Assembly (NCBI GenBank): GCA_964016885.1
Contig: OZ024740.1
Location: 8,618,001-8,682,000, forward strand
Source: Eledone cirrhosa
Taxonomy: Eukaryota
Reading direction: 5' to 3'
Length of the DNA stretch: 64,000 bases
Shown: one piece after another, positions 12,001 to 36,768 of the stretch
How the letters are laid out: every line of letters begins with the position of its first letter
Position numbering within the stretch: the stretch's first letter is position 1
Notes under the pieces: generated by a model
The model's database searches: none
What the model was told of the DNA's origin: nothing
Seen by the model: the letters and a program-made list of their open reading frames with translations, nothing else
Program-made: the position numbers and the translations under genes

Positions 12001-15000
12001 CAGTTTTGATTGGTATGTCAGTTTCTATTGGTATATCAGTCTCTATTGGTATGTCAGTTTCGATTAGTTTATCAGTTTCAATTGGTATGTCAGTTTCGAT
12101 TGGTATGTCAGTTACTATTGGTATATCAGTTTCTATTCGTATGTCAATTTCGATTGGTATGTCAGTTTGGATTGGTATATAAGTTTCGATTGGTATGTCA
12201 GTTTCGATTGCTATGTCAGTTTTGATTGGTATATCAGTTTTGAATGGTATGTCAATCTCGAATGGTAGGTCAATTTCGATTGGTATATCAGTTTCGATTA
12301 GTATGTCAGTTTCTATTGGTATGTCAGTTTCAATTAGTTTATCAGTTTCTATTGGTATGTCAGTTTCGATTGGTATGTCAGATTCTATTGGTATATCAGT
12401 TTCTATTGGTATGTCTGTTTCTATTGGTATATCACTTTCTATTGGTATATCACTTTCTATTGGTATGTCTGTTTCTATTGGTATATCAGTTTCGATTGGT
12501 ATATCAGTTTAGATTGGTATGTCAGTTTCGATTGGTATGTCAGTTTCGATTGGTATATCAGTTTCTATTGGTATGTCAGTTTCGATTAGTTTATCAGTTT
12601 CAATTGGTATGTCAGTTTCGATTGGTATGTCAGTATCTATTGGTATTTCAGTTTCTATTGGTATGTCAATTTCGATTGGTATGTCAGTTTGGATTGGTAT
12701 ATCAGTTTCGATTGGTATGTCAGTTTCGACTGCTATGTCAGTTTTGATTGGTATATCAGTTTTGAATGGTATGTCAATCTCGATTGGTAGGTGAATTTCG
12801 ATTGGTATATCAGTTTCGATAAGTATGTCAGTTTCTATTGGTATGTCAGTTTCAAATAGTTTATCAGTTTCTATTGGTATGTCACTTTCTATTGGTATAT
12901 CACTTTCTATTGGTATGTCTGTTTCTATTGGTATATCTGTTTCGATTGGTATATCAGTTTAGATTGGTATGTCAGTTTCGATTGGTATGTCAGTTTCGAT
13001 TGGTATATCAGTTTCAATTTGTATGTCAGTTTCTATTGTTATGTCAGTTTCGATTGGTAGGTCAGTTTCTATTGGTATGTCAGTTTCGATTGGTATGTCA
13101 GTTACTATTGGTATGTCAGTTTCGATTGGTATTTTAGTTTCGATTGGTATGTCAGTTTCTATTTGTATGTCAGTTTCGATTGGTATATCAGTTTCGATTG
13201 GTATGTCAGTTTCGATTGGTATGTCATTATCTATTGGTATATCAGTTTCGATTGATATATCCGTTTCGATTAGTATGTCAGTTTCTATTGGTATATCAGT
13301 TTCGGTTTGTACATCAGTTACTATTGGTATGTCAGTTTCTATTGGTTTGTCAGTTTCGATTAGTGTATCAGTTTCTATTGGTATGTCAGTTTCGATTGTT
13401 ATGTCAGTTTCGATTGGTATATCAGTTTAGATTAATATGTCAGTTTCTATTGGTATATCAGGTTCGAATGCAATGTCAATCTCGATTGGTATGTCAATTT
13501 CAATTGGTATATCAGTTTCGATTGGTATATCAGTTTAAATTGGTATGTCAGTTTCGATTGGTATGTCAGTTTCTATTGGTATATCAGTTTCTATTGGTAT
13601 GTCAGTTTCGATTAGTTTATCAGTTTCAATTGGTATGTCAGTTTCGATTGGTATGTCAGTATCTATTGGTATATCAGTTTTTATTGGTATGTCAATTTCG
13701 ATTGCTACGTCAGTTTCGATTGGTATATCAGTTTTGAATGGTATGTCAATCTCGATTGGTATGTCAGTTTCAATTAGTTTATCAGTTTCTATTGGTATGT
13801 CAGTTTCGATTGGTATATCAGATTCTATAGGTATATCAGTTTCTATTGGTATGTCCGTTTCTATTGGTATATCAGTTTCGATTGGTATATCAGTTTAGAT
13901 TGGTATGTCAGTTTCGATTGGTATGTCAGTTTCGATTGGTATATCAGTTTCAATTGGTATTTCAGTTTCTATTGGTATGTCAGTTTCGATTGGTAGGTCA
14001 GTTTCTATTGGTATGTCAGTTTCGATTGTTATGTCAGTTTCTATTGGTATATCAGTTTCGATTGATATATCAGTTTCTATTGGTAGGTCAGTTTCGATTG
14101 GTATATCAGTTTCGATTGGTATATCAGATTCTATTGGTATATCAGTTTCTATTGGTATGTCTGTTTCTATTGGTATATTACTTTCTATTGGTATATCAGT
14201 TTCGATTGTTATGTCAGTTTCGATTGGTATATCGGTTTCGAATGGAATGTCAATCTCGATTGGTATGTCAATTTCGATTGGTATATCAATTTCGATTGGT
14301 ATATCAGTTAATATTGGTATGTCAGTTTCGATTGGTACGTCAGTTTCGCTTATTATATCAGTTACTATTGGTATGTCAGTTTCGATTGGTATGTCAGTTT
14401 CGATTGGTATGTCAGTTTCTATTGGTATATCAGTTTCGATTGGTATGTCAGTTTCGATTAGTATATCAGATTCTATAAGTCTGTCAGTTTCTATTGGTAT
14501 ATCAGTTTCGATTGGTATATCAGTTTCGATTGGTATGTCAGTTTCGATTGTTATATCAGTGTCGATTAGTATGTCAGTTTCTATTGGTATATCAGTTTCG
14601 ATTGGTATGTCAGTTTCTATTAGTATGTCAGTTTCTATTGGTATATCAGTTTCTATAAGTATGTCAGTTTCTATTGGTATGTCAGTTTCGATTGATATAT
14701 CAGTTTAGATTGGTATGTCAGTTTCGATTGGTATGTCAGTTACTATTGGTATGTCAGCTTCGATTGGGATTTCAGTTTCGATTGGTATGTCAGTTTCTAT
14801 TGGTATATCAGTTTCGGTTGGTATGTCAGTTTCAATTAGTACATCAGTTTTGATTGGTATGTCAGTTTCTATTGGTATGTCAGTTTCGATTAGTATGTCA
14901 ATTTCTATTGGTATATCAGTTTCTATAAGTATATCAGTTTCGATTGATGTATCCGTTTCGATTAGTATGTCAGTTTCTATTGGTATATCAGTTTCCATTG

Positions 15001-18000
15001 GTATATCAGTTACTATTGGTATGTCAGTTTCTATTGTTTTGTCAGTTTCGATTAGTGTATCAGTTTCTATTGGTATGTCAGTTTCGATTGTTATGTCAGT
15101 TTCTATTGGTATATCAGTTTCTATTGGTATGTCAGTTTCGATTGGTAGGTCAGTTTCTATTTGTATGTCAGTTTCTATTCGTATGTCAGTTTCGATTGGT
15201 AGGTCAGTTTCTATTGGTATGTCAGTTTGTGTTGGTATGTCTGTTTCTATTGGTATATCAGTTTCGATTGGTATGTCAGTTTCTATTGTTATGTCAGTTT
15301 CGATTGGTATATCAGTTTAGATTAATATGTTAGTTTCTATTGGTATATCAGTTTCGAATGCAAAGTCAATCTCGATTGGTATGTCAATTTCGATTGGTAT
15401 ATCAGTTTCGATTGGTATATCAGTAACTATTGGTATGTCAGTTTCGATTGGTATGTCAGTTTCGATTATTATATCAGTTACTATTGGTATGTCAGTTTCG
15501 ATTGGTATGTCAGTGTCTATTGGTGTGTCAGATTCTATAAGTATGTCAGTTTCTATTGGTATATCAGTTTCGATTGGTATATCAGTTTCGATTGGTATGT
15601 CAGTTTTGATTGGTATGTCAGTTTCTATTGGTATATCAGTTTCTATTGGTATGTCAGTTTCGATTAGTTTATCAGTTTCAATTGGTATGTGAGTTTCGAT
15701 TGGTATGTCAGTATCTATTGGTATATCAGTTTCTATTGGTATGTCAATTTCGATTGCTATGTCAGTTTTGATTGGTATATCAGTTTTGAATGGTATGTCA
15801 ATCTCGATTGGTAGGTCAATTTCGATTGGTATATCAGTTTCGATTAGTATGTCAGTTTCTATTGGTATGTCAGTTTCAATTAGTTTATCAGTTTCTATTG
15901 GTATGTCAGTTTCGATTGGTATGTCAGATTCTATTGGTATATCAGTTTCTATTGGTATGTCTGTTTCTATTGGTATATCACTTTCTATTGGTATATCACT
16001 TTCTATTGGTATGTCTGTTTCTATTGGTATATCAGTTTCGATTGGTATATCAGTTTAGATTGGTATGTCAGTTTCGATTGGTATGTCAGTTTCGATTGGT
16101 ATATCAGTTTCAATTTGTATGTCAGTTTCTATTGTTATGTCAGTTTCGATTAGTAGGTCAGTTTCTATTGGTATGTCAGTTTCGATTGGTATGTAAGTTT
16201 CTATTGGTATATCAGTTTCGATTGGTATGTCAGTTTCGATTGGTATATCAGTTTCGAATGGAATGTCAATCTCGATTGGTATGTCAATTTCGATTGGTAT
16301 GTCAGTTTCGATTGGTATGTCAGTTTCGATTATTATATCAGTTACTATTGGTATGTCAGTTTCGATTGGTATGTCAATTTCTATTGGTATGTCAGTTTCG
16401 ATTGGTATGTCAGTTTATATTGGTATGTCAGTTTCGATTGGTATGTCAATCTCGATTGGTATGTAAGTTTCGATTGGTATATCAGTTTCGATTGGTATAT
16501 CAGTTTCGATTGGTATATCAGTTTAGATTGGTATGTCAGTTTCGATTGGTATGTCAGTTACTATTGGTATGTCACTTTCGATTGGTATTTCAGTTTCGAT
16601 TGGTATGTCAGTTTCTTTTGGTATGTCAGTTTCAATTAGTACATCAGTTTTGATTGGTATGTCAGTTTCTATTGGTATGTCAGTTTCGATTAGTATGTCA
16701 GTTTCTATTGGTATATCAGTCTCTATAAGTATGTCAGTTTCTATTGGTATGTCATTCTCCATTGGTATATCAGTTTCGATTGATATATCCGTTTCGATTA
16801 GTATGTCAGTTTCTATTGGTATATCAGTTTCGATTGGTATATCAGTTACTATTGGTATGTCAGTTTCTATTGGTTTTTCAGTTTCGATTAGTATATCAGT
16901 TTCTATTGGTATGTCAGTTTCGATTGTTATGTCAGTTTCTATTGGTATATCAGTTTCTATTGTTATGTCAGTTTCGATTGGTAGGTCAGTTTCTATTGGT
17001 ATGTCAGTTTCTATTGGTATGTCAGTTTCGATTGGTAGGTCAGTTTCTAATGGTATGTAAGTTTCTATTTGTATGTCAGTTTCTATTGGTATATCAGTTT
17101 CGATTGGTATGTCAGTTTCTATTTTTATGTCAGTTTCGATTGGTATGTCAGTTTAGATTAATATGTCAGTTGCTATTGGTATATCAGTTTCGAATGCAAT
17201 GTCAATCTCGATTGGTATGTCAGTTTCGATTGGTATATCAGTTTCGATTGGTATATCAGTTACTATTGGTATGTCAGTTTCGATTGGTATGTCAGTTTCG
17301 ATTATTATATCAGTTACTATTGGTATGTCAGTTTCGATTGGTATGTCAGTGTCTATTGGTATGTCAGTTTCTATAAGTATGTCAGTTTCTATTGGTATAT
17401 CAGTTTCGATTGTTATATCAGTGTCGATTAGTATGTCAGTTTCTATTGGTATGTCAGTTTCGATTGGTATGTCAGTGTCTATTGGTATGTCAGTTTCTAT
17501 TGGTATGTCTGTTTCTATAGGTATATCAGTTTCGATTGGTATATCAGTTTCGATTGGTATGTCAGTTTCGAGTGGTATGTCAGTTTCGATTGGTATATCA
17601 GTTTCGAATGGTATGTCAGTTTCGATTGGTATGTCAGTTTCGATTGGTATATCAGTTTTGAATGGTATGTCAATCTCGATTGGTATGTCAATTTCGATTG
17701 GTATATCAGTTTCGATTAGTATGTCAATTTCTATTGGTATATTAGTTTTGATTGGTATATCAGTTTCAATTTGTATGTCAGTTTCTAATGGTTTATCAGT
17801 TTCTATTGGTATGTCAGTTTGTATTTAGTATAACACTTTCTATTGGTATGTCAGTTTCTATTGGTATGTCAGTTTCGATTAGTATATCAGTTTCTATTGG
17901 TATGTCAGTTTCGATTGGTATGTGAGTTTCTGTTGGTATGTCAGTTTCGATCGGTATGTCAGTTTCTATTGGTATATCAGTTTCTATAATTATGTCAGTT

Positions 18001-21000
18001 TCTATTGGTATGTCATTCTCTATTGGTATATCAGTTTCGATTGATATATCCGTTTCGATTAGTATGTCAGTTTTTATTGGTATATCAGTTTCGATTGGTA
18101 TATCAGTTACTATTGGTATGTCAGTTTCTATTGGTTTGTCAGTTTCGATTAGTATATCAGTTTCTATTGGTATGTCAGTTTCGATTGTTATGTCAGTTTC
18201 TATTGGTATATCAGTTTCTATTGGTATGTCAGTTTCGATTGGTATATCAGTTCCGATTGGTATGTCAGTTTCTATTGTTATGTCAGTTTCGATTGGTATA
18301 TCAGTTTAGATTAATATGTCAGTTTCTATTGGTATATCAGTTTCGAATGCAATGTCAATCTCGATTGGTATGTCAATTTCGATTGGTATGTCAGTTTCGA
18401 TTGGTATGTCAGTTTATATTGGTATGTCAGTTTCGATTAGTATATCAGTTTCTATTGTTATGTCAGTTTCGATTGGTATGTCAATCGCGATTGGTATGTC
18501 AGTTTCGATTGGTATATCAGTTTCGATTGGTATATCAGTTTCGATTGGTATATCAGTTTCGATTGGTATGTCAGTTTCGATTGGTATGTGAGTTACTATT
18601 GGTATGTCAGTTTCAATTAGTACATCAGTTTTGATTGGTATGTCAGTTTCTATTGGTATGTCAGTTTCGATTAGTATGTCAGTTTCTATTGGCATATCAG
18701 TTTCTATAAGTATGTCAGTTTCTATTGGTATATCAGTTTCGATTGATATATCCGTTTCGATTAGTATGTCAGTTTCTATTGGTATATCAGTTTCGATTGG
18801 TATATCAGTTACTATTGGTATGTCAGTTTCTATTGGTTTGTCAGTTTCTATTAGTATATCAGTTTCTACTGGTATGTCAGTTTCGATTGGTATGTCAGTT
18901 ACTATTGGTATGTCAGTTTCAATTAGTACATCAGTTTCGATTGGTAGGTCAGTTTCTATTAGTATGTCAGTTTCTATTGGTATGTCAGTTTCTATTGGTA
19001 TATCAGTTTCAATTGGTATGTCAGTTTCTATTGTTATGTCCGTTTCGATTGGTATATCTGTTCAGATTAATATGTCAGTCTCTATTGGTATATCAGTTTC
19101 GAATGCAATGTCAATCTCGATTGGTATGTCAATTTCGAATGGTATATCAGTTTCGATTGGTATATCAGTTACTATTGGTATGTCAGTTTCTATGGGTATG
19201 TCAGTTTCGATTAGTTTATCAGTTTCTATTGGTACGTCAGTTTCGATTGGTACGTCAGTGTCTATTGGTATGTCAGTTTCTATTGGTATGTCTGTTTCTA
19301 TTGGTATATCAGTTTCGATTGGTATATCAGTTTCGATTGGTATGTCAGTTTCGATTGGTATGTTAGTTTCGATTGGTATATCAGTTTCGAATGGTATATC
19401 AGTTTCGATTGGTATGTCAGTTTCGATTGGTATATCAGTTTTGAATGGTATGTCAATCTCGATTGGTATGTCAATTTCGATTGGTATATCAGTTTCGATT
19501 AGTATGTCAATTTCTATTGGTATATTAGTTTTGATTGGTATATCAGTTTCAATTTGTATGTCCATTTCTAATGGTTTATCAGTTTCTATTGGTATGTCAG
19601 TTTGTATTTAGTATAACAGTTTCAATTGGTATGTCAGTTTCTATTGGTATGTCAGTTTCGATTGGTATGTCAGTTTCTGTTGGTATGTCAGTTTCGATCG
19701 GTATGTCAGTTTCTATTGGTATATCAGTTTCTATAAGTATGTCAGTTTCTATTGGTATATCAGTTTCGATTGATATATCCGTTTCGATTAGTATGTCAGT
19801 TTCTATTGGTATATCAGTTTCGATTGGTATATCAGTTACTATTGGTATGTCAGTTTCTATTGGTTCTTCAGTTTCGATTAGTATATCAGTTTTTATTGGT
19901 ATGTCAGTTTCGATTGTTATGTCAGTTTCTATTGGTATATCAGTTTCTATTGGTATGTCAGTTTCGATTGTTAGGTCAGTTTCTATTGGTATGTCAGTTT
20001 CTATTGGTATGTCAGTTTCGATTGGTAGGTCAGTTTCTATTGGTATGACAGTTTCTATTGGTATGTCAGTTTCTATTGGTATATCAGTTTCGATTGGTAT
20101 GTCAGTTTCTATTGTTATGTCAGTTTCGATTGGTATATCAGTTTAGATTAATATGTCAGTTTCTATTGGTATATCAGTTTCGAATGCAATGTCAATCTCG
20201 ATTGGTATGTCAATTTCGATTGGTATATCAGTTTCGATTGGTATATCAGTTACTATTGGTATGTCAGTTTCGATTGGTATGTCAGTTTCGATTATTATAT
20301 CAATTACTATTGGTATATCAGTTTCGATTGGTATGTCAGTGTCTATTGGTATGTCAGTTTCCCTAAGTATGTCAGTTTCTATTGGTATATCAGTTTCGAT
20401 TGGTATATCAGTTTCGATTGGTATGTCAGTTTCTATTGGTATATCAGTTCCGATTGATATATCAGTTTCGATTAGTATGTCACTTTCTATTGGTATGTCA
20501 GTTTCGATTAGTTTATCAGTTTCTATTGGTATGTCAGTTTCGATTGGTATGTCAGTGTCTATTGGTATGTCAGTTTCTAATGGTATGTCTGTTTCTATTG
20601 GTATATTAGTTTTGATTGGTATATCAGTTTCAATTTGTATGTCAGTTTCTAATGGTTTATCAGTTTCTATTGGTATATCAGTTTGTATTTAGTATAACAG
20701 TTTCAATTGATATATCAGTTTCGATTAGTATGTCAGTTTCGATTAGTATATCAGTTTCTATTGGTATGTCAGTTTCGATTGGTATGTCAGTTTCGATTAG
20801 TATGTCAGTTTCTATTGGTATATCAGTCTCGAATGGAATGTCAATCTCGATTGGTATGTCAATTTCGATTGGTATATCAGTTTCGATTGGTATATCAGTT
20901 ACAATTGGTATGTCAGTTTCGATTGGTATGTCAGTTTCGATTATTATATCAGTTACTATTGGTATGTTAGTTTCGATTGGTATGTCAGTTTCGATTGGTA

Positions 21001-21236
21001 TGTCAGTTTCTATTGGTATATCAGTTTCGATTGGTATATCAGTTTCGATTGGAATATCAGTTTCTATAATTATGTCAGTTTCTATTGGTATATCAGTTTC
21101 GATTGGTATATCAGTTTCGATTGGTATGTCCGTTTCGATTGGTATATCAGTTTCTAGTAGTATATCAATTTCGATTGATATATCAGTTTCGATTAGTATG
21201 TCAGTTTCTATTGGTATGTCAGTTTCGATTAGTTTA
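1..21236. repeat. 18-bp tandem satellite array, left part (consensus ATTGGTAT[G/A]TCAGTTTC[G/T])
   Basis: Continuous head-to-tail 18-mers from base 1 (attggtatatcagtttct attggtatgtcagtttcc ...). The 6-aa periodic ORFs in all frames reflect the 18-nt period. The array runs off the left edge of the window. Confidence 0.98.
469..11726. repeat. Higher-order repeat, 2880 bp (160 monomers), ~3.9 near-identical copies; first period is 2934 bp
   Basis: Near-identical ORF translations recur at 1105/4039/6919/9799, 1437/4371/7251/10131 and 3010/5890/8770 (offsets 2934, 2880, 2880). Rare variants (cagtttttcg, gaatgcaacgtc, attggtgtca) recur at the same offsets. Confidence 0.93.
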
Positions 21237-21494
21237 GAAATATGAGGGATCAGATGTTGTTTACTCGAGAGAAGGCTACGTTGGTATGGTCACGTGATGC
21301 ACATGAAAGACGACAGCTGTATAACAAAGTGCAGGGCAATAAAGATAGACGGTAGCCACGGAGTAGGCAAACCCAGAAAAACCTGGGACGAGCTGATAAA
21401 TTCCGACCTCACACACTTACACCTCTCCAAGACAATGTCACTGGACCGAGACCTTTGGCGGTACTCAGTAATAGAGAAGACACGCGTTACCTAA
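21234..21494 (+). pseudogene. Fragment of the RTE ORF C-terminus (RLRWYGHV motif; GKPRKTW motif) with an in-frame TGA near its 5' end
   Basis: ORF track 21294..21494 extended upstream by hand to the junction. It aligns codon for codon with LSIRGIKCCVQERRLRWYGHVMRMKDDSCIKRC of the full-length copy. Confidence 0.85.
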
Positions 21495-21889
21495 ATACAA
21501 AGTAAAACCTACTACAGTCAGTAGGCATCTCTAACAAAATACACCCCCGTCCCACCACCCTCACCCCATCCACACCGCCCCTTTCAATGTAAAGTTATGT
21601 TGGTGCCACAAAATCCAGGCCAAAACAAATGAGATCGTGTAGGTGTCACGGCAAAAAAAAAAACACACAGTCCACACTGTAATGTGACCGTGTAGGCAAC
21701 ACGGTAAAAACCTCCCAGCCTCACACTGTAAATGTGGTTGGTGTTAGGAAGGGCATCCAACTGTAGAAAACCCACCAGACAGTCCTATGCGAGCAATACA
21801 ACCACTCTTGCCTCAAGTGGGAAAACTCCCGTCCAAACCCATGCAAGCATGGAACACGGACGTTAAACGATGATGATAATGATGATGAT
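21237..21889 (+). mobile_element. 5'-truncated RTE-clade LINE, copy 1 (subfamily A): RT C-terminus, 3' UTR and (GAT)n tail
   Basis: Translates as LEI*GIRCCLLERRLRWYGHVMHMKDDSCITKCRAIKIDGSHGVGKPRKTWDELINSDL..., homologous to the C-terminus of the full-length element at 27870-28135. Stop at 21492-21494. The 3' UTR contains GGTGTTAGGAAGGGCATCCA. Tail gatgatgataatgatgatgat at 21869-21889. Confidence 0.93.
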
Positions 21890-22682
21890 TATCAGTTTCT
21901 ACTGGTATGTCAGTTTCGATTGGTATGTCAGTTTCTATTGGTATATCAGTTCCTATTGGTATGTCTGTTTCTACTGGTATATCAGTTTCTATTGTTATAT
22001 CAGTTTCTAATGCTATGTCTGTTTCTATTGGTATATCAGTTTCGATTGGTATATCAGTTTCGATTCGTATGTCAGTTTCGATTGGTATGTCAGTTTCGAT
22101 TGGTATATCAGTTTAGATTAGTATGTCAGTTTCGATTGTTATGTCAGTTTCGATTGGTATATCAGTTTCGAATGGAATGTTAATCTCGATTGGTATGTCA
22201 ATATCGATTGGTATATCAGTTTCGATTGGTATATCAGTTACTATTGGTATGTCAGTTTAGATTATTATATTAATTACTATTGGTATGTCAGATTCGATTG
22301 TTATGTCAGTTTCGATTGGTATGTCAGTTTCTATTGGTATATCAGTTTCGATTGGTGTGTAAGTTTCGATTAGTACATCAGTTTCTATAAGTATGTCAGT
22401 TTCTATTGGTATATCAGTTTCTATTGGTATGTCTGTTTCTATTGGTATATCAGTTTCGATTGGTATATCAGTTCCGATTGGTATGTCAATTTCGATTGGT
22501 ATGTCAGTTTTGATTGGCATATCAGTTTTGAATGGTTTATCAATTTCGATTGGTATATCAGTTTCGATTAGTATGTCAGTTTCTATTGGTATATCAGTTT
22601 CGATTGGTATATCCGTTTCAATTGGTATGTCAGTTTCTATTGGTATATCAGTTTCGATTGGTATATCAGTTTCGATTGGTAT
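21890..22682. repeat. 18-bp satellite segment between LINE copies 1 and 2
   Basis: About 44 monomers with the same consensus and orientation as the rest of the array. Confidence 0.97.
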
Positions 22683-23295
22683 AGCTGATAAATTCCGACC
22701 TCACACGCTTACACCTCTCCAAGACAATGTCACTGGACCGAGACCTTTGGCGGTACTCAGTAATAGAGAAGACCCGCCTTACCTAAATACAAAGTAAAAA
22801 CCTACTACAGTCAGTAGGCATCTCTATCAAAACACACCCCCGTCCCACCACCTCAACCCCACCCACACCGCCCCTTTCAATGTAAAGTTATGTTGGTCCC
22901 ACAACATCCAGGCCGAAACAAATGAGATCGTGTAGGTGTCACGACAAAAAACACACAGTCCACGCTGTAAATGTGGCCGTGTAGGCAACACGGTAAAAAC
23001 CTCCCAGCCCCACACTGTAAATGTGGTTGGTGTTAGGAAGGGCATCCAGCTGTAGAAAACCCGCCAGACAGTCCACGCTGTAATGTGGCCGTGTAGGCAA
23101 CACGGTAAAAACCTCCCAGCCCCACACTGTAAATGTGGTTGGTGTTAGGAAGGGCATCCAACTGTAGAAAACCCGCCAGACAGTCCTATGCGAGCAAGAC
23201 AACCACTCTTGCCTCAAGTGGGAAAACCCCCGTCCAAACCCATGCAAGCGTGGAACACGGACGCTAAACCTGATGATGATGATGATGATGATGAT
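22683..23295 (+). mobile_element. 5'-truncated RTE-clade LINE, copy 2 (subfamily A), with a ~113-bp internal tandem duplication and (GAT)n tail
   Basis: Starts at agctgataaattccgacc (= 21391 in copy 1) and is roughly 95% identical to copy 1 by eye. ORF stop at 22784-22786. Tail tgatgatgat... at 23271-23295. The 5' truncation point and flanks differ from copy 1. Confidence 0.93.
22955..23186 (+). repeat. Tandem duplication (113/112 bp) in the 3' UTR of LINE copy 2, bounded by ACAGTCC
   Basis: ACAGTCC occurs at 22955, 23068 and 23180. The two units differ by one A (taaatg/taatg) and by ccagctg/ccaactg. Copy 1 has only one unit. Confidence 0.9.
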
Positions 23296-24590
23296 GTCAG
23301 TTTAGATTAGTATGTCTGTTTCTATTGGTATATCAGTTTCGATTGGTATATCAGTTTCAATTGGTATGTCAGTTTCTATTGGTATAACAGTTTCGATTGG
23401 TATATCAGTTTCAATTGGTATGTCAGTTTCTATTGGTATAACAGTTTCGATTGGTATATCAGTTTCGATTGGTATATAAGTTTCGAATGGAATGTCAATC
23501 TCGATTGGTATATCAGTTTCGATTGGTATATCAGTTACTATTGGTACGTCAGTTTCGATTGGTATGTCAGTTTCGCTTATATCAGTTACTATTGGTATGT
23601 CAGTTTCGATTGGTATGTCAGTTTCGATTGGTATGTCAGTTTCTATTGGTATATCAGTTTCGATTGGTATGTCAGTTTCGATTAGTATATCAGATTCTAT
23701 AAGTCTGTCAGTTTCTATTGGTATATCAGTTTCGATTGGTATGTCAGTTTCGATTGTTATATCAGTGTCGATTAGTATGTCAGTTTCTATTGGTATATCA
23801 GTTTCGATTGGTATGTCAGTTTCTATTAGTATGTCAGTTTCTATTGGTATATCAGTTTCTATAAGTATGTCAGTTTCTATTGGTATGTCAGTTTCGATTG
23901 ATATATCAGTTTCGATTGGTATGTCAGTTACTATTGGTATGTCAGCTTCGATTGGGATTTCAGTTTCGATTGGTATGTCAGTTTCTATTGGTATATCAGT
24001 TTCGGTTGGTATGTCAGTTTCAATTAGTACATCAGTTTTGATTGGTATGTCAGTTTCTATTGGTATGTCAGTTTCGATTAGTATGTCAATTTCTATTGGT
24101 ATATCAGTTTCTATAAGTATATCAGTTTCGATTGATGTATCCGTTTCGATTAGTATGTCAGTTTCTATTGGTATATCAGTTTCGATTGGTATATCAGTTA
24201 CTATTGGTATGTCAGTTTCTATTGTTTTGTCAGTTTCGATTAGTGTATCAGTTTCTATTGGTATGTCAGTTTCGATTGTTATGTCAGTTTCTATTGGTAT
24301 ATCAGTTTCTATTGGTATGTCAGTTTCGATTGGTAGGTCAGTTTCTATTTGTATGTCAGTTTCGATTAGTTTCTTAGTTTCTATTGGTATGTCAGTTTCG
24401 ATTGGTATGTCAGTTTCGATTAGTATGTCAGTTTCTATTGGTATGTCAGTTTAGATTGGTATGTCAGTTTCGATTGCTATGTCAGTTTCAATTGTCATAT
24501 CAGTTTTGAATGGTATGTCAATCTCGATTGGTATGTCAATTTCGATTGGTATATCAGTTTCGATTAGTATGTCAGTTTCTATTGGTATAT
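23296..24590. repeat. 18-bp satellite segment between LINE copies 2 and 3; contains the left/right domain switch
   Basis: About 23500-24350 shares rare variants with about 14300-15170 (attgggatttcag, gcttcg, attgatgtatccg). From about 24361 it carries right-domain variants (attagtttcttag, attgtcatatc). Confidence 0.92.
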
Positions 24591-24615
24591 TTTTCATGTC
24601 GTTAATATTATGATG

Positions 24616-24667
24616 TTCCCTGCTGTATTAGCGTTAAATTTTCCCTGCTGTATTAGCGATAAATTTT
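24616..24667 (+). repeat. 25-bp direct tandem repeat (2 copies) in the LINE 5' region
   Basis: ttccctgctgtattagcgttaaatt at 24616 and ttccctgctgtattagcgataaatt at 24641. Confidence 0.85.
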
Positions 24668-25011
24668 CGAGGGTTTCTCTTAGTAGCTTTTTTCATGACG
24701 TTATTATTGTTAATTTTACTGATGTAGTATTAACTTGGATATTTACCATGCGACCCTCAGTTCCTACCTCACAATTTCCCTCCCCCCCACCCCCACACAC
24801 CACCATAGTCTATTCGACCAATCAAACCTAGCATGCCATTTCCACTGCTGCTGCTGCTACTACCTGCCTAACTAACTCTCTCCTCCTCTGGCGCATCCCA
24901 ACACACCCTGCCATTACCCCACCACCACTGTCCTTCTAGCCCTCAATTTTCCCACCGTTAGGGATGGATGAGCTGGGAATACACGAGCAACTCTGAATCA
25001 ATAGATGAAAT

Positions 25012-28000
25012 ATGAATCTGCGAGCTACCAAGCACCCACGTGAAGCGCCAACCCAGAGACCCTCCCCTACGAGTGTCGACAAATGCCCAAAACTCCGAGT
25101 TGGTACCATCAATGTAGGCTCAATGAAAGGAAGAGCAGGAGAAATCGTAGAAATGCTAGAGCGAAAGGAAGTTGATGTATGCTGTGTGCAAGAGACTAGA
25201 TGGAGAGGAGGGTCTGCTAGAGTCCTTGTAGGAAAAAGCCAGTGCTACAAATTTTTCTGGGTGGGAAATGACGATGGGATGGGTGGTGTAGGTATACTAT
25301 TAGCTGACAAGTGGGTAGATAAAGTAATCTCAGTGTACAGGGTAAATGCAAGAATCATTAAACTCAGACTAGTCCTGAATAAGACAATTACCACAATAAT
25401 ATCAGCTTACGCACCCCAATCGGGGCTGCCAGACGAACTTAAGGATAGGTTTTACGAGTCCCTAATACACACTACTGCTCTAACAGACGACAAGGACTTC
25501 CTAATCATTGCAGGAGATTTTAACGGACACGTAGGTAAACACTGCGACGGCTTCAATAGAGTACATGGAGGCCATGGAGTTGGCACAAGGAATGAGGAAG
25601 GATTCAGACTTCTAGAATTCTGCGACGCCAATGACATGTCGATATGTAACACAAACTTTAAAAAACCCGACAACCACCTGATCACCTATAGATCAGGGGA
25701 GCACTCTAGTCAGTTAGATTTTATCCTCATCAGAGGACGTGACAGATGGACGGTCGTAAACACAAAAGCCTTCCCTAGTGAGGAATGTACATCCCAACAT
25801 AGCTTAGTTGTCAGCGACCTCACGGTCAGAACTAGACGAGCCCTGAAACAGAGGCCAACCTGGAGAAGAAAGATCTGGAAGCTGAAAGTCCCCTCAACCA
25901 GTAACAGATTTAAAGATATTTTACTCAACGCCTACGACAGTAAAGAAGAACAGATAGAGACATTTAACGTAGAAGAGAACTGGGAGTTCCTAAAAAATAA
26001 CTTACTAGAGGCGACGGATGAGGTTTGTGGCTGGAGTAAGACCTCAAGCAGGAGGAGAGTGACTTGGTGGTGGAACAATAAGGTAGATGAAGCAGTCAAG
26101 GCCAAGAGACAGGCATGGAAAGAATGGAAGAACGGGGGGAGCAGGGTACATTACATAGAGACCAAGAGGGAAGCTAGGCGACAAGTATACTTAGCTAGGA
26201 GGGAAGCAGAGGATAGAAAATTCAAGCATGTTTTACAACGTGAGGACCAGAAACAGGAGGTATTCAAGATTGCGAGGCAGTGTGTCAGAGATAGTTGTGA
26301 TGTCATTGGAGAGAAGTGTATCCGGAATGATAAAGGTGAGCTTGCCCTCACAAGTGCTGAGAAGAAAGATGCATGGAAGAGTCATTATGATAGATTACTA
26401 AATGAGGAGAATGCATGGGAAGAAGAGACCCTACCCCACGTAGACCCTATAGAGGGACCAGCAGTACAAGTCAGCGGCAGCGTAGTAAGTAAGGCAATCA
26501 GAGATATGAAGATAGGGAAGGCAACCGGTCCATCGGGTATAGCTGCCGAGATGCTGAAGGCATCTGGGTCTGTAGGTCACACTATAACCACACGTATCGT
26601 TAACCAGGTAATACTAGAGGGGGCCATACCAAAAGATTGGTGCAGTAGCATCATTGTCAACTGCTACAAAGGTAATATTAGGCGATGCACTAGATAGAGG
26701 AAACTATAGAGGTATAAAGTTGATGGACCAGGTCATGAAAGTAACAGAAAGAGTTATAGCACAGCTGATTAGGGACCGGGTGAATATAGACGAGATGCAA
26801 TTTGGGTTTGTTCCAGGGAAAGGCACCACTGATGCGCTCTTCCTTGTGAGGCAATTACAGGAAAAGTACCTAGCTAAAAGTAAGCCACTCTACTTGGCAT
26901 TTGTCGACCTTGAGAAAGCCTTTGACAGAGTTCCACGTGCAGTAATCTGGTGGGCTCTTAGAAAACTAGGAGTAGATGAATGGCTTGTGAAAGCGGTACA
27001 AGCCATGTATAGGGGAGCAGTCAGCAAAGTTAGGATTGGCAATGAGTATAGCGAGGAATTTAGCGTACAGGTTGGGGTCCACCAGGGCTCTGTTCTTAGC
27101 CCTCTCCTGTTCATCATAGTCCTGCAGGCAATAACGGAGGAGTTTAAGACCGGATGCCCATGGGAACTCCTGTATGCTGATGACCTCGCACTCATAGCTG
27201 AATCTATGGTAGAACTAGAGAATAAATTCCAAACCTGGAAGCAGGGACTAGAGAGAAAGGGCCTCAAAGTCAACATGACAAAGACTAAGGTCCTTATAAG
27301 TAGACGAGAAAACAGAACCCAGATCCCCTCAGGGAAATGGCCTTGCTCAGTATGTAGGAAAGGTGTAGGTAGGAACTCCATTCTTTGCCCCAAATGCAAA
27401 CAATGGGTACACAAGAGATGTAGCGGGATCTCAGGAAGCTTAATTAAGAATGTAGGATTCACATGCAGCAGCTGTGCTGAAACAGCAAGCAAACAGCCAC
27501 AGGAAACAAGTACCACCAATCTCTGGGAGGGCCCTGTAGAAACAGTAGACAGCTTCTGCTACCTAGGTGACCGAATTAGCAACGGAGGTGGGTGCTCAGA
27601 AAGTACAATAACTAGGGTAAGAACGGGATGGAAGAAGTTTAGGGAACTACTACCACTGCTAGCTGCAAAAGGCTTCTCCCTCAGAATGAAAGGCAGACTG
27701 TATGATGCGTGTATCCGAACAGCAATGTTGCATGGTAGTGAGACCTGGGCGCTGAAGGTGGAAGACTTACGTAGATTAGAGAGAAACGAAGCCTGCATGC
27801 TCCGATGGATGTGTAACAGTAATATACGTGAACGACAAAGCATAAATGAATTGAGAGAGAGACTGAGCATAAGAGGAATCAAATGCTGCGTGCAGGAGAG
27901 GCGGTTACGCTGGTATGGACATGTGATGCGTATGAAGGATGACAGCTGCATAAAAAGGTGCAGAGCACTAGAAGTTGATGGAAACCGCGGAGTGGGGAGA

Positions 28001-28135
28001 CCCAAGATGACTTGGGATGAGGTGATAAAAGCCGACCTTACCCAACTACACCTCTCAAAGTCAATGACACACGACCGTGACTTCTGGCGTCACGCAGTAA
28101 TACAGGGTACCCGACCTCCCATGGGTACATGCTGA
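25012..28135 (+). pseudogene. RTE endonuclease-reverse transcriptase ORF (~1039 aa if repaired), split by one 4-bp insertion at ~26676-26679
   Basis: APE motifs GTINVGSM, CCVQETRW, SAYAPQ, IAGDFNGH, QLDFIL, SQH in ORF 25012..26697. RT motifs NYRGI, QFGF..GKGTTDA, FVDLEKAFDRV, GVHQGSVLSPLLF, LLYADDL, GLKVN..KTK, FCYLG in ORF 26654..28135. Removing TATT from ggt-aa[tatt]a-ggc restores CYKGKGDALDRGNYRG and fuses the two frames (3120 nt). Confidence 0.92.
27344..27475 (+). other. C4HC3 PHD-type zinc finger inserted in the RT between the KTK motif and the FxYLG motif
   Basis: CSVC-x10-CPKC-x4-H-x2-C-x14-CSSC (WPCSVCRKGVGRNSILCPKCKQWVHKRCSGISGSLIKNVGFTCSSC) matches the PHD ligand spacing, including the W-x-H-x-x-C core. 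Confidence 0.8.
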
Positions 28136-28375
28136 AGCATATAAACAATATGCCCCCCCCCCCCACCGCAAGGTGGTCGTGGAGGTGCCACGGCAAAAAA
28201 GCACCCAGCCCACACTGTAAAGTGGACGTGTAGGCGCCACGAAAAAGCACCCAGCACTCACTGTAAATGAGGTTGGTGTTAGGAAGGGCATCCAGCTGTA
28301 GAAATCAAGCCAGATCAGTTCCTGTATGAGCAAGGCATGGTCAGCCGACCAGACACTGCCCACAACAGGACAACC

Positions 28376-28408
28376 CGTCTAACCCATGCTAGCGTGGAAG
28401 AACGGACG
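28376..28408 (+). promoter_or_regulatory. Predicted 3'-terminal RNA stem-loop of the LINE (putative RT recognition element); equivalents at 21830-21862 and 23231-23263
   Basis: CGTC(C/T)-aac-CCATG-c(a/t)ag-C(A/G)TGG-aa..ac-GGACG lies immediately before the tail in all three copies. The stem substitutions give G-U pairs. Confidence 0.65.
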
Positions 28409-28971
28409 TAAAACGGTGATGATGATGATGATGATGATATCAGTTTCTATTGGTATATCAGTTTCTATTGGTATATCAGTTTCGATTGATATATCAGTTT
28501 CGATTAGTATGTCAGTTTCTATTGGTATGTCAGTTTCAATTAGTTTCTTAGTTTCTATTGGTATGTCAGTTTTCGATTGTTATGTCAGTTTCTATTGGTA
28601 TATCAGTTTCTATTGGTATGTCTGTTTCTATTGGTATGTCTGTTTCTATTTGTATATCAGTTTCGATTGGTATATCAATTCTGATTGGTATGTCAATTTC
28701 AATTGGTATGTCAGTTTGGATTGGTATATCAGTTTCGATCGGTATGTCAGTGTCGATTGGTATGTCAATTTCGATTGGTATATCAGTTTCGAATGGTATG
28801 TCAATCTCGATTGGTATGTCAGTTTCGAATGGTATGTCAGTTTCTATCGTTATATCTGTTTCGATTGGTATATCAGTTTTGATTGGTATGTCAGTTTCGA
28901 TTGGTATGTCAGTTTCTATTGGTATATCAGTTTCGTTTGTTATATCAGTTTCGATTAGTATGTCAGTTTCT

Positions 28972-29313
28972 ATTGGTATGTCAGTTTCGATTAGTTTATC
29001 AGTTTCTATTGGTATGTCAGTTTCGATTGGTATGTCAGTTTCTATTGGTATATCAGTTTCTATTGGTATATCAATTTCTATTGGTATGTCTGTTTCTATT
29101 GGTATATCAGTTTCGATTGGTAATTCAGTCTCGATTGGTATGTCAGTTTCGATTAGTTTATCAGTTTCTATTGGTATGTCAGTTTCGATTGGTATGTCAG
29201 TTTCTATTGGTATATCAGTTTCTATTGGTATATCAATTTCTATTGGTATGTCTGTTTCTATTGGTATATCAGTTTCGATTGGTAATTCAGTCTCGATTGG
29301 TATGTCAGTTTCG
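28972..29313. repeat. 162-bp (9-monomer) local tandem duplication
   Basis: The rare variant ggtaattcagtctcg occurs at 29119 and 29281, with the same run of preceding monomers. Confidence 0.8.
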
Positions 29314-30287
29314 CTTGGTATGTCAGTTTCGATTGGTATATCAGTTTCGATTGGTATATCAGTTTCGATTGGTATGTCAGTTTCGATTGGCATGTTAGAC
29401 TCGATTGTTATGTCAGTTTCGATTGATATGTCAGTTTCGATTGGTATGTCAGTTTCGATTGGTATGTCAGTTTCGATTGGTATATCAGTTTCGAATGGTA
29501 TGTCAATTTCGATTGGTATGTCAGTTTGGATTGGTATATCAGTTTCGCCGGTATGTCAGTTTCGATTGCTATGTCAGTTTCGATTGTCATATCAGTTTTG
29601 AATGGTATGTCAATCTCGATTGGTATGTCAATTTCGATTGGTGTATCAGTTTCGATTAGTATGTCAGTTTCTATTGGTATATCAGTTTCGATTGGTATAT
29701 CAGTTTCTGTTGGTATGTCAGTTTTGATTGGTATGTCAGTTTCTATTGGTATGTCAGTTTCGATTAGTTTCTTAGTTTCTATTGGTATGTCAGTTTCGAT
29801 TGGTATGTCAGTTTCGATTGGTATATCAGTTTCGAATGGTATGTCAATCTTGATTGGTATGTCAGTTTTGAATGGTATGTCAGTTTCTATTGTTATATCT
29901 GTTTCGATTGGTATGACAGTTTCGATTAGAATATCAGTTTCTATAAGTATGTCAGTTTCTATTGGTATATCAGTTTCGATTGGTATATCAGTTTCGATTG
30001 GTATGTCAGTTTCGATTGGTATGTCAGTTACTATTGGTATATCAGTTTCGATTGATATATCAGTTTCGATTGGTATGTCAGTTTCGATTGGTATGACAGT
30101 TTCTATTGGTATATCAGTTTCGTTTGTTATATCAGTTTCGATTAGTATGTCAGTTTCTATTGGTATGTCAGTTTAGATTGGTATGTCAGTTTCGATTGCT
30201 ATGTCAGTTTCGATTGTCATATCAGTTTTGAATGGTATGTCAATCTCGATTGGTATGTCAATTTCGATTGGTATATCAGTTTCGATT

Positions 30288-33200
30288 AGTATGTCAGTTT
30301 CTATTGGTATATCAGTTTCTATTGGTATATCAGTTTCTATTGGTATATCAGTTTCGATTGATATATCACTTTCGATTAGTATGTCAGTTTCTATTGGTAT
30401 GTCAGTTTCAATTAGTTTCTTAGTTTCTATTGGTATGTCAGTTTTCGATTGTTATGTCAGTTTCTATTGGTATATCAGTTTCTATTGGTAGGTCAATTTC
30501 GATTGGTATGTCAGTTTGGATTGGTATATCAGTTTCGATCGGTATGTCAGTTTCGATTGGTATGTCAATTTCGATTGGTATATCAGTTTCGATTAGTATG
30601 TCAGTTTCTATTGATATTTCAATTTCGATTGGTATGTCAGTTTCGATTGGTATGTCAGTTTCTATTGGTATATCAGTTTCGATTGATATATCAGTTTCGA
30701 TTTGTATGTCAGTTTCTATTGGTATGTCTGTTTCTATTGCTATATCAGTTTCGATTGGTATATCAGTTTCGATTAGTATGTCAGTTTCTATTGGGATATC
30801 AGTTTCTATTGGTATATCTGTTTCGATAGGTATGTCAGGTTTCTATTGGAATGTAAGTTTCAATTGGTATGTCAGTTTCGATTGGTATTCCAGTTTCGAT
30901 TGGTATATCAGTTTAGATTGGTATGTGAGTTTCGATTTGTATATCGGTTTTCGAATGGTATATCAATCTCGATTGGTATGTGAGTTTCGAATGGTATGTC
31001 AGTTTCTATTGGTATATCATATTCGATTGGTATGACAGTTTCAATTAGTATATCAGTTTCTATAAGTATGTCAGTTTCTATTGGTATATCAATTTCGATT
31101 GGTTTATCAGTTTCGATTGGTATGTCAGTTTTGATTGGTATGTCAGTTTCGATTGGTATATCAATTTCTATTGATATATCAGTTTTGATTAGTATGTCAG
31201 TTTCTATTGGTATATCAGTTTCGATTAATTTATCAGTTTCTATTTGTACGTCAGTTTCGATAGGTTTGTCAGGTTTCTATTGGTATGTCAGTTTCAATTG
31301 GTATGTCAGTTTCGATTGGTTTATCAGTTCCGATTGGTATGTCAATTTCGATGGGTATATCAGTTTGGATTGGTATATCAGTTTCGATCTGTATGTCAGT
31401 TTCGATTGCTATGTCAGTTTCGATTGTTATATCAGTTTTGAATGTTATGTCAATCTCTATTGGTATGTCAATTTCGATTGGTATAACAGTTTCTATTAGT
31501 ATGTCAGTTTCTATTGGTATATCAGTTTCGATTGGTATATCAGTTGCGATTGGTATGTCAGTTTCTATTGGTATGTCTGTTTCTATTGCTATATCAGTTT
31601 TGATTGGTATATCAGTTTCGATTGGTATATCAGTGTCGATTGGTATGTCAATTTCGATTGGTATATCAGTTTCGATTAGTATGTCAGTTTCTATTGGGAT
31701 ATCACTTTCAAATGGTATATCAGTTTCAATTGGTATGTCAGTTTCTAATGATATATCAGTTTCTATTGGTATGTCTGTTTCTATTGGTATATCAGTTTCA
31801 ATTGGTATGTCAGTTTCGATTAGTATATCAGTATCTATTGGTATGTCAGTTTCGATTGGTATGTCAGTCTCGATTGTTATGTCAGTTTCGATTGTTATGT
31901 CAGTTTCGTTGGTATACCAGTTTCGATTGGTATATCAGTTTAGATTGGTATGTCAGTTTCGATTGGTATGTCAGTTTCGATTGTTATATCAGTTTCGATT
32001 GGTATGTCAGTTTCGATTGGTATATCAGTTTAGATTGGTATGTCAGTTTCGATTGGTATGTCAGTTTCGATTGTTATATCAGTTTCGATTGGTATGTAAG
32101 TTTCGAATGGTATGTCAGTTTCTATTGTTATATCTGCTTCGATTGGTATGACAGTTTCGATTAGAAAATCAGTTTCTATAAGTATGTTAGTTTCTATTGG
32201 TATATCAGTTTCGATTGGTATGTCAGTTTCTATTGGTATATCAGTTTCGTTTGTTATATCAGTTTCGATTAGTACGTCAGTTACTATTGGTATGTCAGTT
32301 TCGATTAGTTTATCAGTTTCTATTGGTATGTTCAGTTTCGATTGGTATGTCAGTTTCTATTGGTATATCAGTTTCTATTGGTATATCAGTTTCTATTGGT
32401 ATGTCTGTTTCTATTGCTATATCAGTTTCGATTGGTATATCAGTTTCGATTGGTATGTCAGTTTCGATTGGTATGTCAGTTTCGATTGGTATATCAGTTT
32501 CGATTGGTATATCAGTTTCGATTGGTATGTCAGTTTTGATTGGTATTTCAGACTCGATTGTTATGTCAGTTTCGATTGGTATGTCAGTTTCGATTGGTAT
32601 ACGAGTTTCGATTGGTATATCAGTTTAGATTGGTATATCAGTTTCGAATGGTATGTCAATCTCGATTGGTATGTATGTTTCTATTGGTATGTCTGTTTCG
32701 ATTGAAATATCAGTTCCGATTGGTATGTCAATTTCGATTGGTATGTCAGTTTGGATTGGTATATCAATTTCGATCGGTATGTCAATTTCGATTGCTATAT
32801 CAGTTTCGATTAGTATGTCAGTTTCTATTGGTATATCAGTTTCGATTAGTATATCAGTTTCTGTTGGTATGTCAGTTTTCGATTGGTATGTCAGTTTCTA
32901 TTGGTATATCAGTTTCTATTGGTATGTCTGTTTCTATTGGTATGTCTGTTTCTATTTGAATATCAGTTTCGATTGGTATATCAATTCCGATTGGTATGTC
33001 AATATCGATTGGTATGTCAGTTTGGATTGGTATATCAGTTTCGATCGGTACGTCAGTTTCGATTGGTATGTCAATTTCGATTGGTAAATCAGTTTGGATT
33101 GGTATATCAGCTTCGAATGGTATGTCAATCTCGATTGGTATGTCAGTTTCGAATGGTATGTCAGTTTCTATTGGTATGTCTGTTTCGATTGGTATGACAG

Positions 33201-36200
33201 TTTCTATTAGAATATCAGTTTCTATAAGTATGTCAGTTTCTATTGGTATATCAGTTTCGATTGGTATATCAGTTTCGATTGGTATGTCAGTTTCGATTGG
33301 TATGTCAGTTTCGATTGGTATGTCAGTCTCAATTGTTATGTCAGTTTGATTGTCATGTCAGTTTCGTTGGTATACCAGTTTCGATTGGTATATCAGTTTC
33401 GATTGGTATGTCAGTTTCGATTGGTATGTCAGTTTCGGATGGTATGTCAGTTTAGATTGGTATGTCTGTTTCGATTGGTATGACATTTTCTATTAGAATA
33501 TCAGTTTCTATAAGTATGTCAGTTTCTATTGGTATATCAGTTTCTATTGGTATATCAGTTTCTATTGGTATATCAGTTTCGATTGATATATCACTTTCGA
33601 TTAGTATGTCAGTTTCTATTGGTATGTCAGTTTCAATTAGTTTCTTAGTTTCTATTGGTATGTCAGTTTTCGATTGTTATGTCAGTTTCTATTGGTATAT
33701 CAGTTTCTATTGGTAGGTCAATTTCGATTGGTATGTCAGTTTGGATTGGTATATCAGTTTCGATCGGTATGTCAGTTTCGATTGGTATGTCAATTTCGAT
33801 TGGTATATCAGTTTCGATTAGTATGTCAGTTTCTATTGATATTTCAATTTCGATTGGTATGTCAGTTTCGATTGGTATGTCAGTTTCTATTGGTATATCA
33901 GTTTCGATTGATATATCAGTTTCGATTTGTATGTCAGTTTCTATTGGTATGTCTGTTTCTATTGCTATATCAGTTTCGATTGGTATATCAGTTTCCATTA
34001 GTATGTCAGTTTCTATTGGGATATCAGTTTCTATTGGTATATCTGTTTCGATAGGTATGTCAGGTTTCTATTGGAATGTAAGTTTCAATTGGTATGTCAG
34101 TTTCGATTGGTATTCCAGTTTCGATTGGTATATCAGTTTAGATTGGTATGTGAGTTTCGATTTGTATATCAGTTTTCGAATGGTATATCAATCTCGATTG
34201 GTATGTGAGTTTCGAATGGTATGTCAGTTTCTATTGGTATATCATATTCGATTGGTATGACAGTTTCAATTAGTATATCAGTTTCTATAAGTATGTCAGT
34301 TTCTATTGGTATATCAATTTCGATTGGTTTATCAGTTTCGATTGGTATGTCAGTTTTGATTGGTATGTCAGTTTCGATTGGTATATCAATTTCTATTGAT
34401 ATATCAGTTTTGATTAGTATGTCAGTTTCTATTGGTATATCAGTTTCGATTAATTTATCAGTTTCTATTTGTACGTCAGTTTCGATAGGTTTGTCAGGTT
34501 TCTATTGGTATGTCAGTTTCAATTGGTATGTCAGTTTCGATTGGTTTATCAGTTCCGATTGGTATGTCAATTTCGATGGGTATATCAGTTTGGATTGGTA
34601 TATCAGTTTCGATCTGTATGTCAGTTTCGATTGCTATGTCAGTTTCGATTGTTATATCAGTTTTGAATGTTATGTCAATCTCTATTGGTATGTCAATTTC
34701 GATTGGTATAACAGTTTCTATTAGTATGTCAGTTTCTATTGGTATATCAGTTTCGATTGGTATATCAGTTGCGATTGGTATGTCAGTTTCTATTGGTATG
34801 TCTGTTTCTATTGCTATATCAGTTTTGATTGGTATATCAGTTTCGATTGGTATATCAGTGTCGATTGGTATGTCAATTTCGATTGGTATATCAGTTTCGA
34901 TTAGTATGTCAGTTTCTATTGGGATATCACTTTCAAATGGTATATCAGTTTCAATTGGTATGTCAGTTTCTAATGATATATCAGTTTCTATTGGTATGTC
35001 TGTTTCTATTGGTATATCAGTTTCAATTGGTATGTCAGTTTCGATTAGTATATCAGTATCTATTGGTATGTCAGTTTCGATTGGTATGTCAGTCTCGATT
35101 GTTATGTCAGTTTCGATTGTTATGTCAGTTTCGTTGGTATACCAGTTTCGATTGGTATATCAGTTTAGATTGGTATGTCAGTTTCGATTGGTATGTCAGT
35201 TTCGATTGTTATATCAGTTTCGATTGGTATGTCAGTTTCGATTGGTATATCAGTTTAGATTGGTATGTCAGTTTCGATTGGTATGTCAGTTTCGATTGTT
35301 ATATCAGTTTCGATTGGTATGTAAGTTTCGAATGGTATGTCAGTTTCTATTGTTATATCTGCTTCGATTGGTATGACAGTTTCGATTAGAAAATCAGTTT
35401 CTATAAGTATGTTAGTTTCTATTGGTATATCAGTTTCGATTGGTATGTCAGTTTCTATTGGTATATCAGTTTCGTTTGTTATATCAGTTTCGATTAGTAC
35501 GTCAGTTACTATTGGTATGTCAGTTTCGATTAGTTTATCAGTTTCTATTGGTATGTTCAGTTTCGATTGGTATGTCAGTTTCTATTGGTATATCAGTTTC
35601 TATTGGTATATCAGTTTCTATTGGTATGTCTGTTTCTATTGCTATATCAGTTTCGATTGGTATATCAGTTTCGATTGGTATGTCAGTTTCGATTGGTATG
35701 TCAGTTTCGATTGGTATATCAGTTTCGATTGGTATATCAGTTTCGATTGGTATGTCAGTTTTGATTGGTATTTCAGACTCGATTGTTATGTCAGTTTCGA
35801 TTGGTATGTCAGTTTCGATTGGTATACGAGTTTCGATTGGTATATCAGTTTAGATTGGTATATCAGTTTCGAATGGTATGTCAATCTCGATTGGTATGTA
35901 TGTTTCTATTGGTATGTCTGTTTCGATTGAAATATCAGTTCCGATTGGTATGTCAATTTCGATTGGTATGTCAGTTTGGATTGGTATATCAATTTCGATC
36001 GGTATGTCAATTTCGATTGCTATATCAGTTTCGATTAGTATGTCAGTTTCTATTGGTATATCAGTTTCGATTAGTATATCAGTTTCTGTTGGTATGTCAG
36101 TTTTCGATTGGTATGTCAGTTTCTATTGGTATATCAGTTTCTATTGGTATGTCTGTTTCTATTGGTATGTCTGTTTCTATTTGAATATCAGTTTCGATTG

Positions 36201-36768
36201 GTATATCAATTCCGATTGGTATGTCAATATCGATTGGTATGTCAGTTTGGATTGGTATATCAGTTTCGATCGGTACGTCAGTTTCGATTGGTATGTCAAT
36301 TTCGATTGGTAAATCAGTTTGGATTGGTATATCAGCTTCGAATGGTATGTCAATCTCGATTGGTATGTCAGTTTCGAATGGTATGTCAGTTTCTATTGGT
36401 ATGTCTGTTTCGATTGGTATGACAGTTTCTATTAGAATATCAGTTTCTATAAGTATGTCAGTTTCTATTGGTATATCAGTTTCGATTGGTATATCAGTTT
36501 CGATTGGTATGTCAGTTTCGATTGGTATGTCAGTTTCGATTGGTATGTCAGTCTCGATTGTTATGTCAGTTTGATTGTCATGTCAGTTTCGTTGGTATAC
36601 CAGTTTCGATTGGTATATCAGTTTCGATTGGTATGTCAGTTTCGATTGGTATGTCAGTTTCGGATGGTATGTCAGTTTAGATTGGTATGTCTGTTTCGAT
36701 TGGTATGACATTTTCTATTAGAATATCAGTTTCTATAAGTATGTCAGTTTCTATTGGTATATCAGTTT
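30288..36768. repeat. Higher-order repeat, 3225 bp, 2 near-identical copies
   Basis: ORF pairs 30430/33655, 30996/34221, 31285/34510, 32112/35337, 32996/36221 and 33243/36468 are all offset by 3225. Confidence 0.92.

Follow-up and report, generated by a model that had tools for sequence, protein, structure and literature searches.

Three long interspersed nuclear elements (LINEs) interrupt an 18-bp satellite in a 64-kb stretch of the Eledone cirrhosa genome, and behind the (GAT)n tail of each the satellite restarts at the same base of its monomer. Does this mark a LINE that targets the satellite, or does the register have a more general cause? The stretch, called the window below, is C1:8,618,001-8,682,000 (C1 being contig OZ024740.1) in a 3.0-Gb genome, and positions without the C1 prefix are window positions. 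A first-pass annotation of the window had proposed a satellite-targeted LINE of the RTE type. Our analysis leads to another answer: the three copies belong to an abundant and dispersed family of (GAT)n-tailed LINEs, and their register probably comes from a short endonuclease preference, Y^ATR, which each monomer offers once. We consider this reading probable (about 80%). The features of the window are as follows, with monomer bases numbered along the satellite unit.

1..64000, + strand: 18-bp satellite ATTGGTATRTCAGTTTCK, part of one array at C1 ~7.23-9.59 Mb (~2.37 Mb)
21237..21889, + strand: copy 1, LINE of subfamily A truncated at its 5' end, (GAT)n tail; site of insertion the variant monomer ATTAGTTTATCAG
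22684..23295, + strand: copy 2, LINE of subfamily A truncated at its 5' end, (GAT)n tail; duplication AT
23294..23295, + strand: A7-T8 at the 3' end of copy 2, where it belongs to tail and target alike
24591..28438, + strand: copy 3, LINE of subfamily B, nearly full-length, (GAT)n tail; duplication ATAT, up to 4 bp
25012..28135, + strand: single open reading frame (ORF) of copy 3 with apurinic/apyrimidinic endonuclease (APE), reverse transcriptase (RT) and PHD finger; a 4-bp insertion near 26675 interrupts the frame
28437..28438, + strand: A7-T8 at the 3' end of copy 3, where it belongs to tail and target alike

The satellite spans the full 64 kb (3539 copies of the 18-bp unit) and has exactly three long interruptions there. 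Copies 1 and 2 share 93.7-94.5% identity and have unlike 5' ends, and copy 3 represents a second subfamily, with ~74% identity between B and A. The three are thus real and independent insertions, as had been claimed, and the restart at monomer position 7 behind each tail was found as described (T7 in the case of copy 1). As a refinement, the bases at the 5' junctions match the element in part as well. Therefore, the duplications amount to 0-3 bp for copy 1, AT (2 bp) for copy 2, where position 9 is unlike between the two sides, and ATAT (up to 4 bp) for copy 3.

Here, we explored this issue in 1.464 Mb of the array including the window, which is 62% of the array. We found 90 gaps, and 85 tail-satellite junctions gave 65 events after duplicates were merged. 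The duplicates merged here were 20, and nested non-satellite junctions and rows of a family E were left out. One inverted duplicate and a pair of elements with (ATT)n tails were also removed, and one wrongly merged short interspersed nuclear element (SINE) was restored. The final set holds 63 independent (GAT)n-tailed events (32 of subfamily A, 25 of subfamily B and 6 SINEs). The central A7-T8 dinucleotide of the monomer is the opening site in 59 of the 63 (52/55 events in the orientation of the satellite strand and 7/8 in the opposite one), with seven variant-monomer sites assigned to the register by eye; of the other four, one opens at positions 1-2, also an AT, and three are ambiguous or deleted. 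This differs strongly from chance (P ~4e-41, even if 6 of the 36 slots of position and strand are allowed). The fixed register, proposed from three copies, is therefore stronger than was claimed. A genome-wide pattern search open to any register showed resumption at position 7 in all same-strand matches listed (100 of 192), and all 10 opposite-strand rows read tail-AT-ACCAAT. The common orientation that had been described is a bias (55/63 events) and not a rule, as 8/63 events run against the satellite strand. Raw junctions across the whole array were 87 on the same strand and 16 on the opposite one (16/103).

Copies were counted over the whole genome by the exact 20-base 3' ends of the two subfamilies. 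There were 18,489 ends for A and 16,252 for B (34,741 in sum), balanced between strands, and 61 of them (29 A and 32 B; 0.18% of all copies) lay within the analysed part of the array. The share inside the array is ~0.2-0.3%, and >99% of copies are elsewhere. Per Mb, the array holds 19.8 A and 21.9 B ends, compared with 16.5 and 21.3 in the non-satellite region C1 0-2.3 Mb (38 and 49 rows), and the array values are inflated by segmental duplicates, as the reduction from 85 junctions to 65 events indicates. Because the two densities are similar and few copies lie in the array, the family is dispersed.

Target-primed reverse transcription is an established process, and it is the basis for placing the nick. 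Four monomers have no AT at the site (that of copy 1, and those at C1:8309031, 8597774 and 8968199), and their downstream flank still begins at position 7, as judged by eye. This points to a priming nick on the bottom strand between positions 7 and 6, and supports the step at which the nick had been placed. Among 23 events with an overlap of 3-8 bp, 19 had the same base at the variable position 9 on the two sides. For longer apparent overlaps the value was 9/18, which is the chance level, and long duplications of 9-18 bp were ruled out on this ground. Thus, the true duplications are short (~2-8 bp in the array), and the remainder are small deletions. Of 25 non-microsatellite sites outside the array, 14 had a duplication of at least 4 bp, while shuffled pairs gave 21%, and 13 of these 14 duplications measured 4-6 bp. 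With ~100 insertions in a 2.4-Mb array of one 18-mer, the nick, the tail overlap and the duplication length can be resolved to the base, which is impossible at (AT)n targets.

The proposed mechanism has three steps. The APE would nick the primer strand just 3' of AT (bottom 5'-GAYAT^ACC-3', top 5'-GGTAT^RTC-3'). The 3'-OH end would then pair with 1-3 nt of the GAU tail and prime reverse transcription, and the second strand would be nicked 2-8 nt away.

We investigated the target preference outside the array in 121 junctions. They represent 89 loci, and the first 2 Mb of C1 supplied 60 of these. None of the 121 junctions touches the satellite, and in 96% of them the tail is followed by A or G. 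Among copies with both ends, 54/79 lie in (AT)n tracts, whereas (AT)n runs make up 5.1% of the bases in a 200-kb spread sample. The duplication begins with AT at 37 of 55 sites, and its first base thus matches the tail repeat. A profile of P-1 to P+3, where P is the first target base, was built from these 55 duplication-anchored sites, because the phase in (AT)n is ambiguous without a duplication. It placed slots -8 and +7 (sign for strand, number for monomer position) at the top of the 36, with 60% of the weight, and the 14 non-microsatellite sites gave the same top two slots more weakly. The first-pass annotation had suggested that the APE prefers 5'-CTGA(C/T)AT^ACCAAT-3'. A short endonuclease preference with tail pairing does fit the data, but it is a general motif of 4 bases and not a 13-base site. 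Such a preference would explain the clustering of this very abundant family in (AT)n tracts.

Several results weigh against the short preference as a full account. A profile from the downstream flank only gave its highest ranks to slots +5 and +6 and did not recover those used. The events are more concentrated (94%) than the anchored profile would have them (60%), and the per-site rates in the array are 1.3-4x those of the genome, the background counts being only 23-43 with duplicates included. The orientation is the larger difficulty. The short outside profile gives slot -8 a weight at least equal to that of +7 and leaves the 55:8 ratio unexplained, and genome rates matched by 7-mer predict 73% same-orientation events against 84-87% seen (P ~0.007). 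An extension of the profile to P-12 puts +7 ahead if all 55 sites are used, but this advantage is lost if the profile is built from the 14 non-microsatellite sites. An intact TTT is found upstream of 26/27 same-orientation sites against a background of 90%, which is not significant. The orientation bias is only partly explained.

What else could set the orientation? As a weaker step of the mechanism, the 7:1 ratio may be due to contact with A/T-rich DNA roughly one helical turn upstream, which only the favoured strand offers, as T14-T16 of the preceding monomer. In the available parts of PMC6007223, RTE retroposons are described as inserting ~10 nt downstream of a T stretch, with a first target base that matches the tail repeat. 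If A7 is taken as the first base, P-11 to P-9 correspond to T14-T16 of the preceding monomer, and the opposite strand reads G-M-T there. We located 478 and 467 non-microsatellite matches outside the array, and the P-10 test took 14 sites; T was present at P-11 in 9 of the 14 non-microsatellite sites, a small sample. G at monomer position 18, which is P-10 for the opposite strand, occurs in 0/8 opposite events (local P = 0.002, post hoc, one event ambiguous), and two further opposite events outside the counted stretch have T at position 18. A bolder reading, which we hold to be less likely than not, is a bipartite site in which a T-run one helical turn upstream would act together with Y^ATR and impose both the 94% register and the 7:1 orientation on a uniform substrate, while G or a methylated CpG at P-10 would block the other strand. 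If this is true, the element would represent an (AT)n-seeking RTE lineage with short duplications that stands between LINEs with and without site specificity, and the array would be a natural cleavage map made in vivo. A preference for T^A over T^G was rejected as the cause of the bias, since opposite events use both (3 A and 4 G, by eye) and same-orientation events are 23 ATAT to 22 ATGT.

Alternatively, the short motif could set the register while the orientation follows the direction of the replication fork or of transcription, chromatin read through the PHD finger, or CpG methylation, and not the T-run. The short profile does not yield the bias, the element does carry a PHD finger, and CpG monomers are slightly under-used downstream (18/49 vs 23.9 expected, P = 0.06). 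However, the bias is present in both halves of the analysed stretch (23:2 and 31:6), and the neighbouring region C1 0-7.2 Mb is strand-balanced (31 + vs 34 - rows). The sole insertion in a 10.7-kb inverted block of the array follows the satellite strand and not the chromosome, although it may predate the inversion. On this evidence we regard such an origin of the orientation as rather unlikely.

The first-pass annotation had also offered microhomology between AT(G) and the GAU tail as the factor that selects the site. In its pure form, this model would let microhomology alone choose among random nicks. Almost every event does have the AT of its tail in common with the target, and one of the two (ATT)n-tailed elements sits at the ATT of the monomer instead. 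Nevertheless, the slot richest in microhomology (minus strand TGAY, with at least 3 nt in 89% of monomers) has 0/63 events and none of the 10 opposite genome-wide rows. GATT at positions 18-2 (at least 3 nt in 57%) has one clear event, while the minus slot that is used offers at least 3 nt in only 1%. Microhomology is refuted as the sole cause, and as such it is very improbable; it persists as a contributing step.

Site-specific APE LINEs are known from the R1 and Tx1 clades, and SART and TRAS are examples. A LINE of this kind that recognises the monomer would account for the near-perfect register (59/63), the 55:8 orientation, and array densities of 3.2x (A) and 4.0x (B) the genome mean for exact 3' ends. 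However, more than 99% of the copies are elsewhere in the genome, the array density is close to that of non-satellite C1 0-2.3 Mb and inflated by duplicates, and both orientations are present. The nearest relatives of copy 1 are also dispersed: 29 of the 30 best matches to its 3' end lie outside the satellite, and the only one inside is the locus in the window itself. For an untargeted element, the annotation had expected most copies outside the satellite and, inside it, both orientations and a uniform register; the first two were found, and the register inside is not uniform over the slots. With 61 of 34,741 exact ends in 62% of the array, the satellite-targeted LINE can be given up as a false lead, and its probability is now minimal. 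Least credible of all is a duplication artefact, in which growth of the array would have multiplied a few insertions and so produced the register: ~20/85 junctions are indeed duplicates, but this is refuted by the de-duplicated set, whose 63 events come from different families, range from 64 bp to >5 kb in length and have unlike flank variants.

The observations that the Y^ATR preference has to join are the dispersal of the copies, their bias to (AT)n outside the array, a fixed A7-T8 register whichever way the copy points, and short duplications or small deletions.

The ORF of copy 3 matches Pfam PF03372, PF14529 and PF00078. Copy 3 is 99.6% identical to an intact copy at C1:9054085-9058820 (locus L248), from which it differs by the 4-bp insertion and 5 mismatches in 3160 bases. 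The intact subfamily B copy has an ORF of 1039 aa, and a second long ORF was not found in it. The PHD finger directly follows the RT domain (window 27344-27475, residues 243-286 of a 505-aa frame), and the APE-RT-PHD layout is common among the 120 best homologues; the finger could perhaps read histone marks. Tails of (GAT)n are common to subfamilies A and B and to a SINE-like family C of ~350 bp, which is found at the same A7-T8 site (e.g., C1:8290081-8290453), as expected if the LINE mobilises the SINE. By its architecture (single APE-RT ORF, microsatellite tail, partner SINE), the element would be assigned to the RTE type.

Both subfamilies carry tandem repeats in their untranslated regions (UTRs). 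A 112-bp unit of the subfamily A 3' UTR is present twice in copy 2 (22955-23186) and about ten times at locus L021. The subfamily B 5' UTR (window 24591-24760, and L248) opens with tandem repeats of variable copy number, which are ~890 bp longer in the intact copy and resemble promoter monomer arrays. A LINE with two ORFs (frames of 502 and 957 aa) and an (ATT)n tail occurs at C1:8321066-8324366 and 8847901-8853174, at other monomer positions that match its tail, and it is likely CR1/L2-like. Two non-tailed insertions, C1:8704413-8704982 (569 bp) and C1:8716226-8716487 (261 bp), have related ends and an apparent AGTAT duplication, and are possibly a small DNA element.

The satellite seems to be confined to a single ~2.4-Mb array on C1. 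Forward matches number 28,050, the first at C1 7.23 Mb, which at the measured density corresponds to 2.37 Mb; tail-satellite junctions were detected as far as C1 9.59 Mb, in agreement with this estimate. The array is a candidate centromeric or heterochromatic block. It contains local higher-order repeats, with indel variants recurring at ~2880-2934, 3225 and 6348 bp (window 1-11000 and 28500-64000), and inverted blocks at C1:8068426-8079095 (10.7 kb) and C1:7889002-7894063 (5 kb), the latter an inverted duplicate of the stretch that carries the 7.87-Mb insertion. Non-satellite, microsatellite-rich DNA breaks the array at C1:9080317-9082000, and satellite junctions go on to 9.59 Mb.

How does the element compare with known systems? 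Narrow literature searches, which did not extend to subscription papers or Repbase notes, gave no account of RTE elements that favour (AT)n or one register of a satellite. Octopus RTE LINEs such as RTE-2_OV (PMC9115989, PMC13282606) are, in the parts available, likewise recently active, with a single ORF, endonuclease, RT, zinc finger and microsatellite 3' end. The likeness is by description alone, and RTE-2_OV has 1109 aa and a C2H2 finger against 1039 aa and a PHD-type finger here. The accessible text of these papers gives no target analysis ('target site' does not occur in that of PMC9115989, nor 'target' or 'satellite' in that of PMC13282606).

The closest parallel is the split signature of RTE LINEs and RTE-mobilised SINEs, as set out in the available sections of PMC6007223. 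The single APE-RT ORF, the microsatellite tail and the partner SINE with the same tail are shared, and so is the first target base that matches the tail, seen in the array as the AT overlap of tail and target. The T-run ~10 nt upstream, which the structure of the monomer supplies on the favoured strand, may be a further likeness. These sections describe no (AT)n-tract bias for RTE, which is strong here, and quote duplications of 7-15 bp in vertebrates from Ichiyanagi and Okada 2008. That length is typical of RTE and not defining, and the values here are shorter (~2-8 bp in the array, 4-6 bp in nearly all sites outside). By the same sections, Nishiyama and Ohshima 2018 (PMC6007223) searched only duplications of at least 10 bp. 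The array thus offers a direct substrate on which the split-signature model of RTE integration can be tested.

R1 and Tx1 are named as the sole site-specific APE clades in the part of PMC6007223 available. The element resembles them in its fixed position within a tandem repeat unit (one position in 59/63 events), and differs in its dispersed copies, its use of both strands, its one ORF and its site of ~4 bases. It is outside the site-specific R1/Tx1 kind, as two defining features fail: most copies do not lie in the target repeat (61/34,741), and the orientation is not single (8/63 opposite). In its action it resembles a LINE of weak sequence bias whose tail pairs with the target, in line with accounts of RTE. 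Human L1 (TTTT^AA), the nearest solved structure (E = 9e-33), shares a weak preference for a pyrimidine-purine step together with pairing of tail and target. The element here differs from L1 in its motif and tail, in having no ORF1, and in its shorter duplications.

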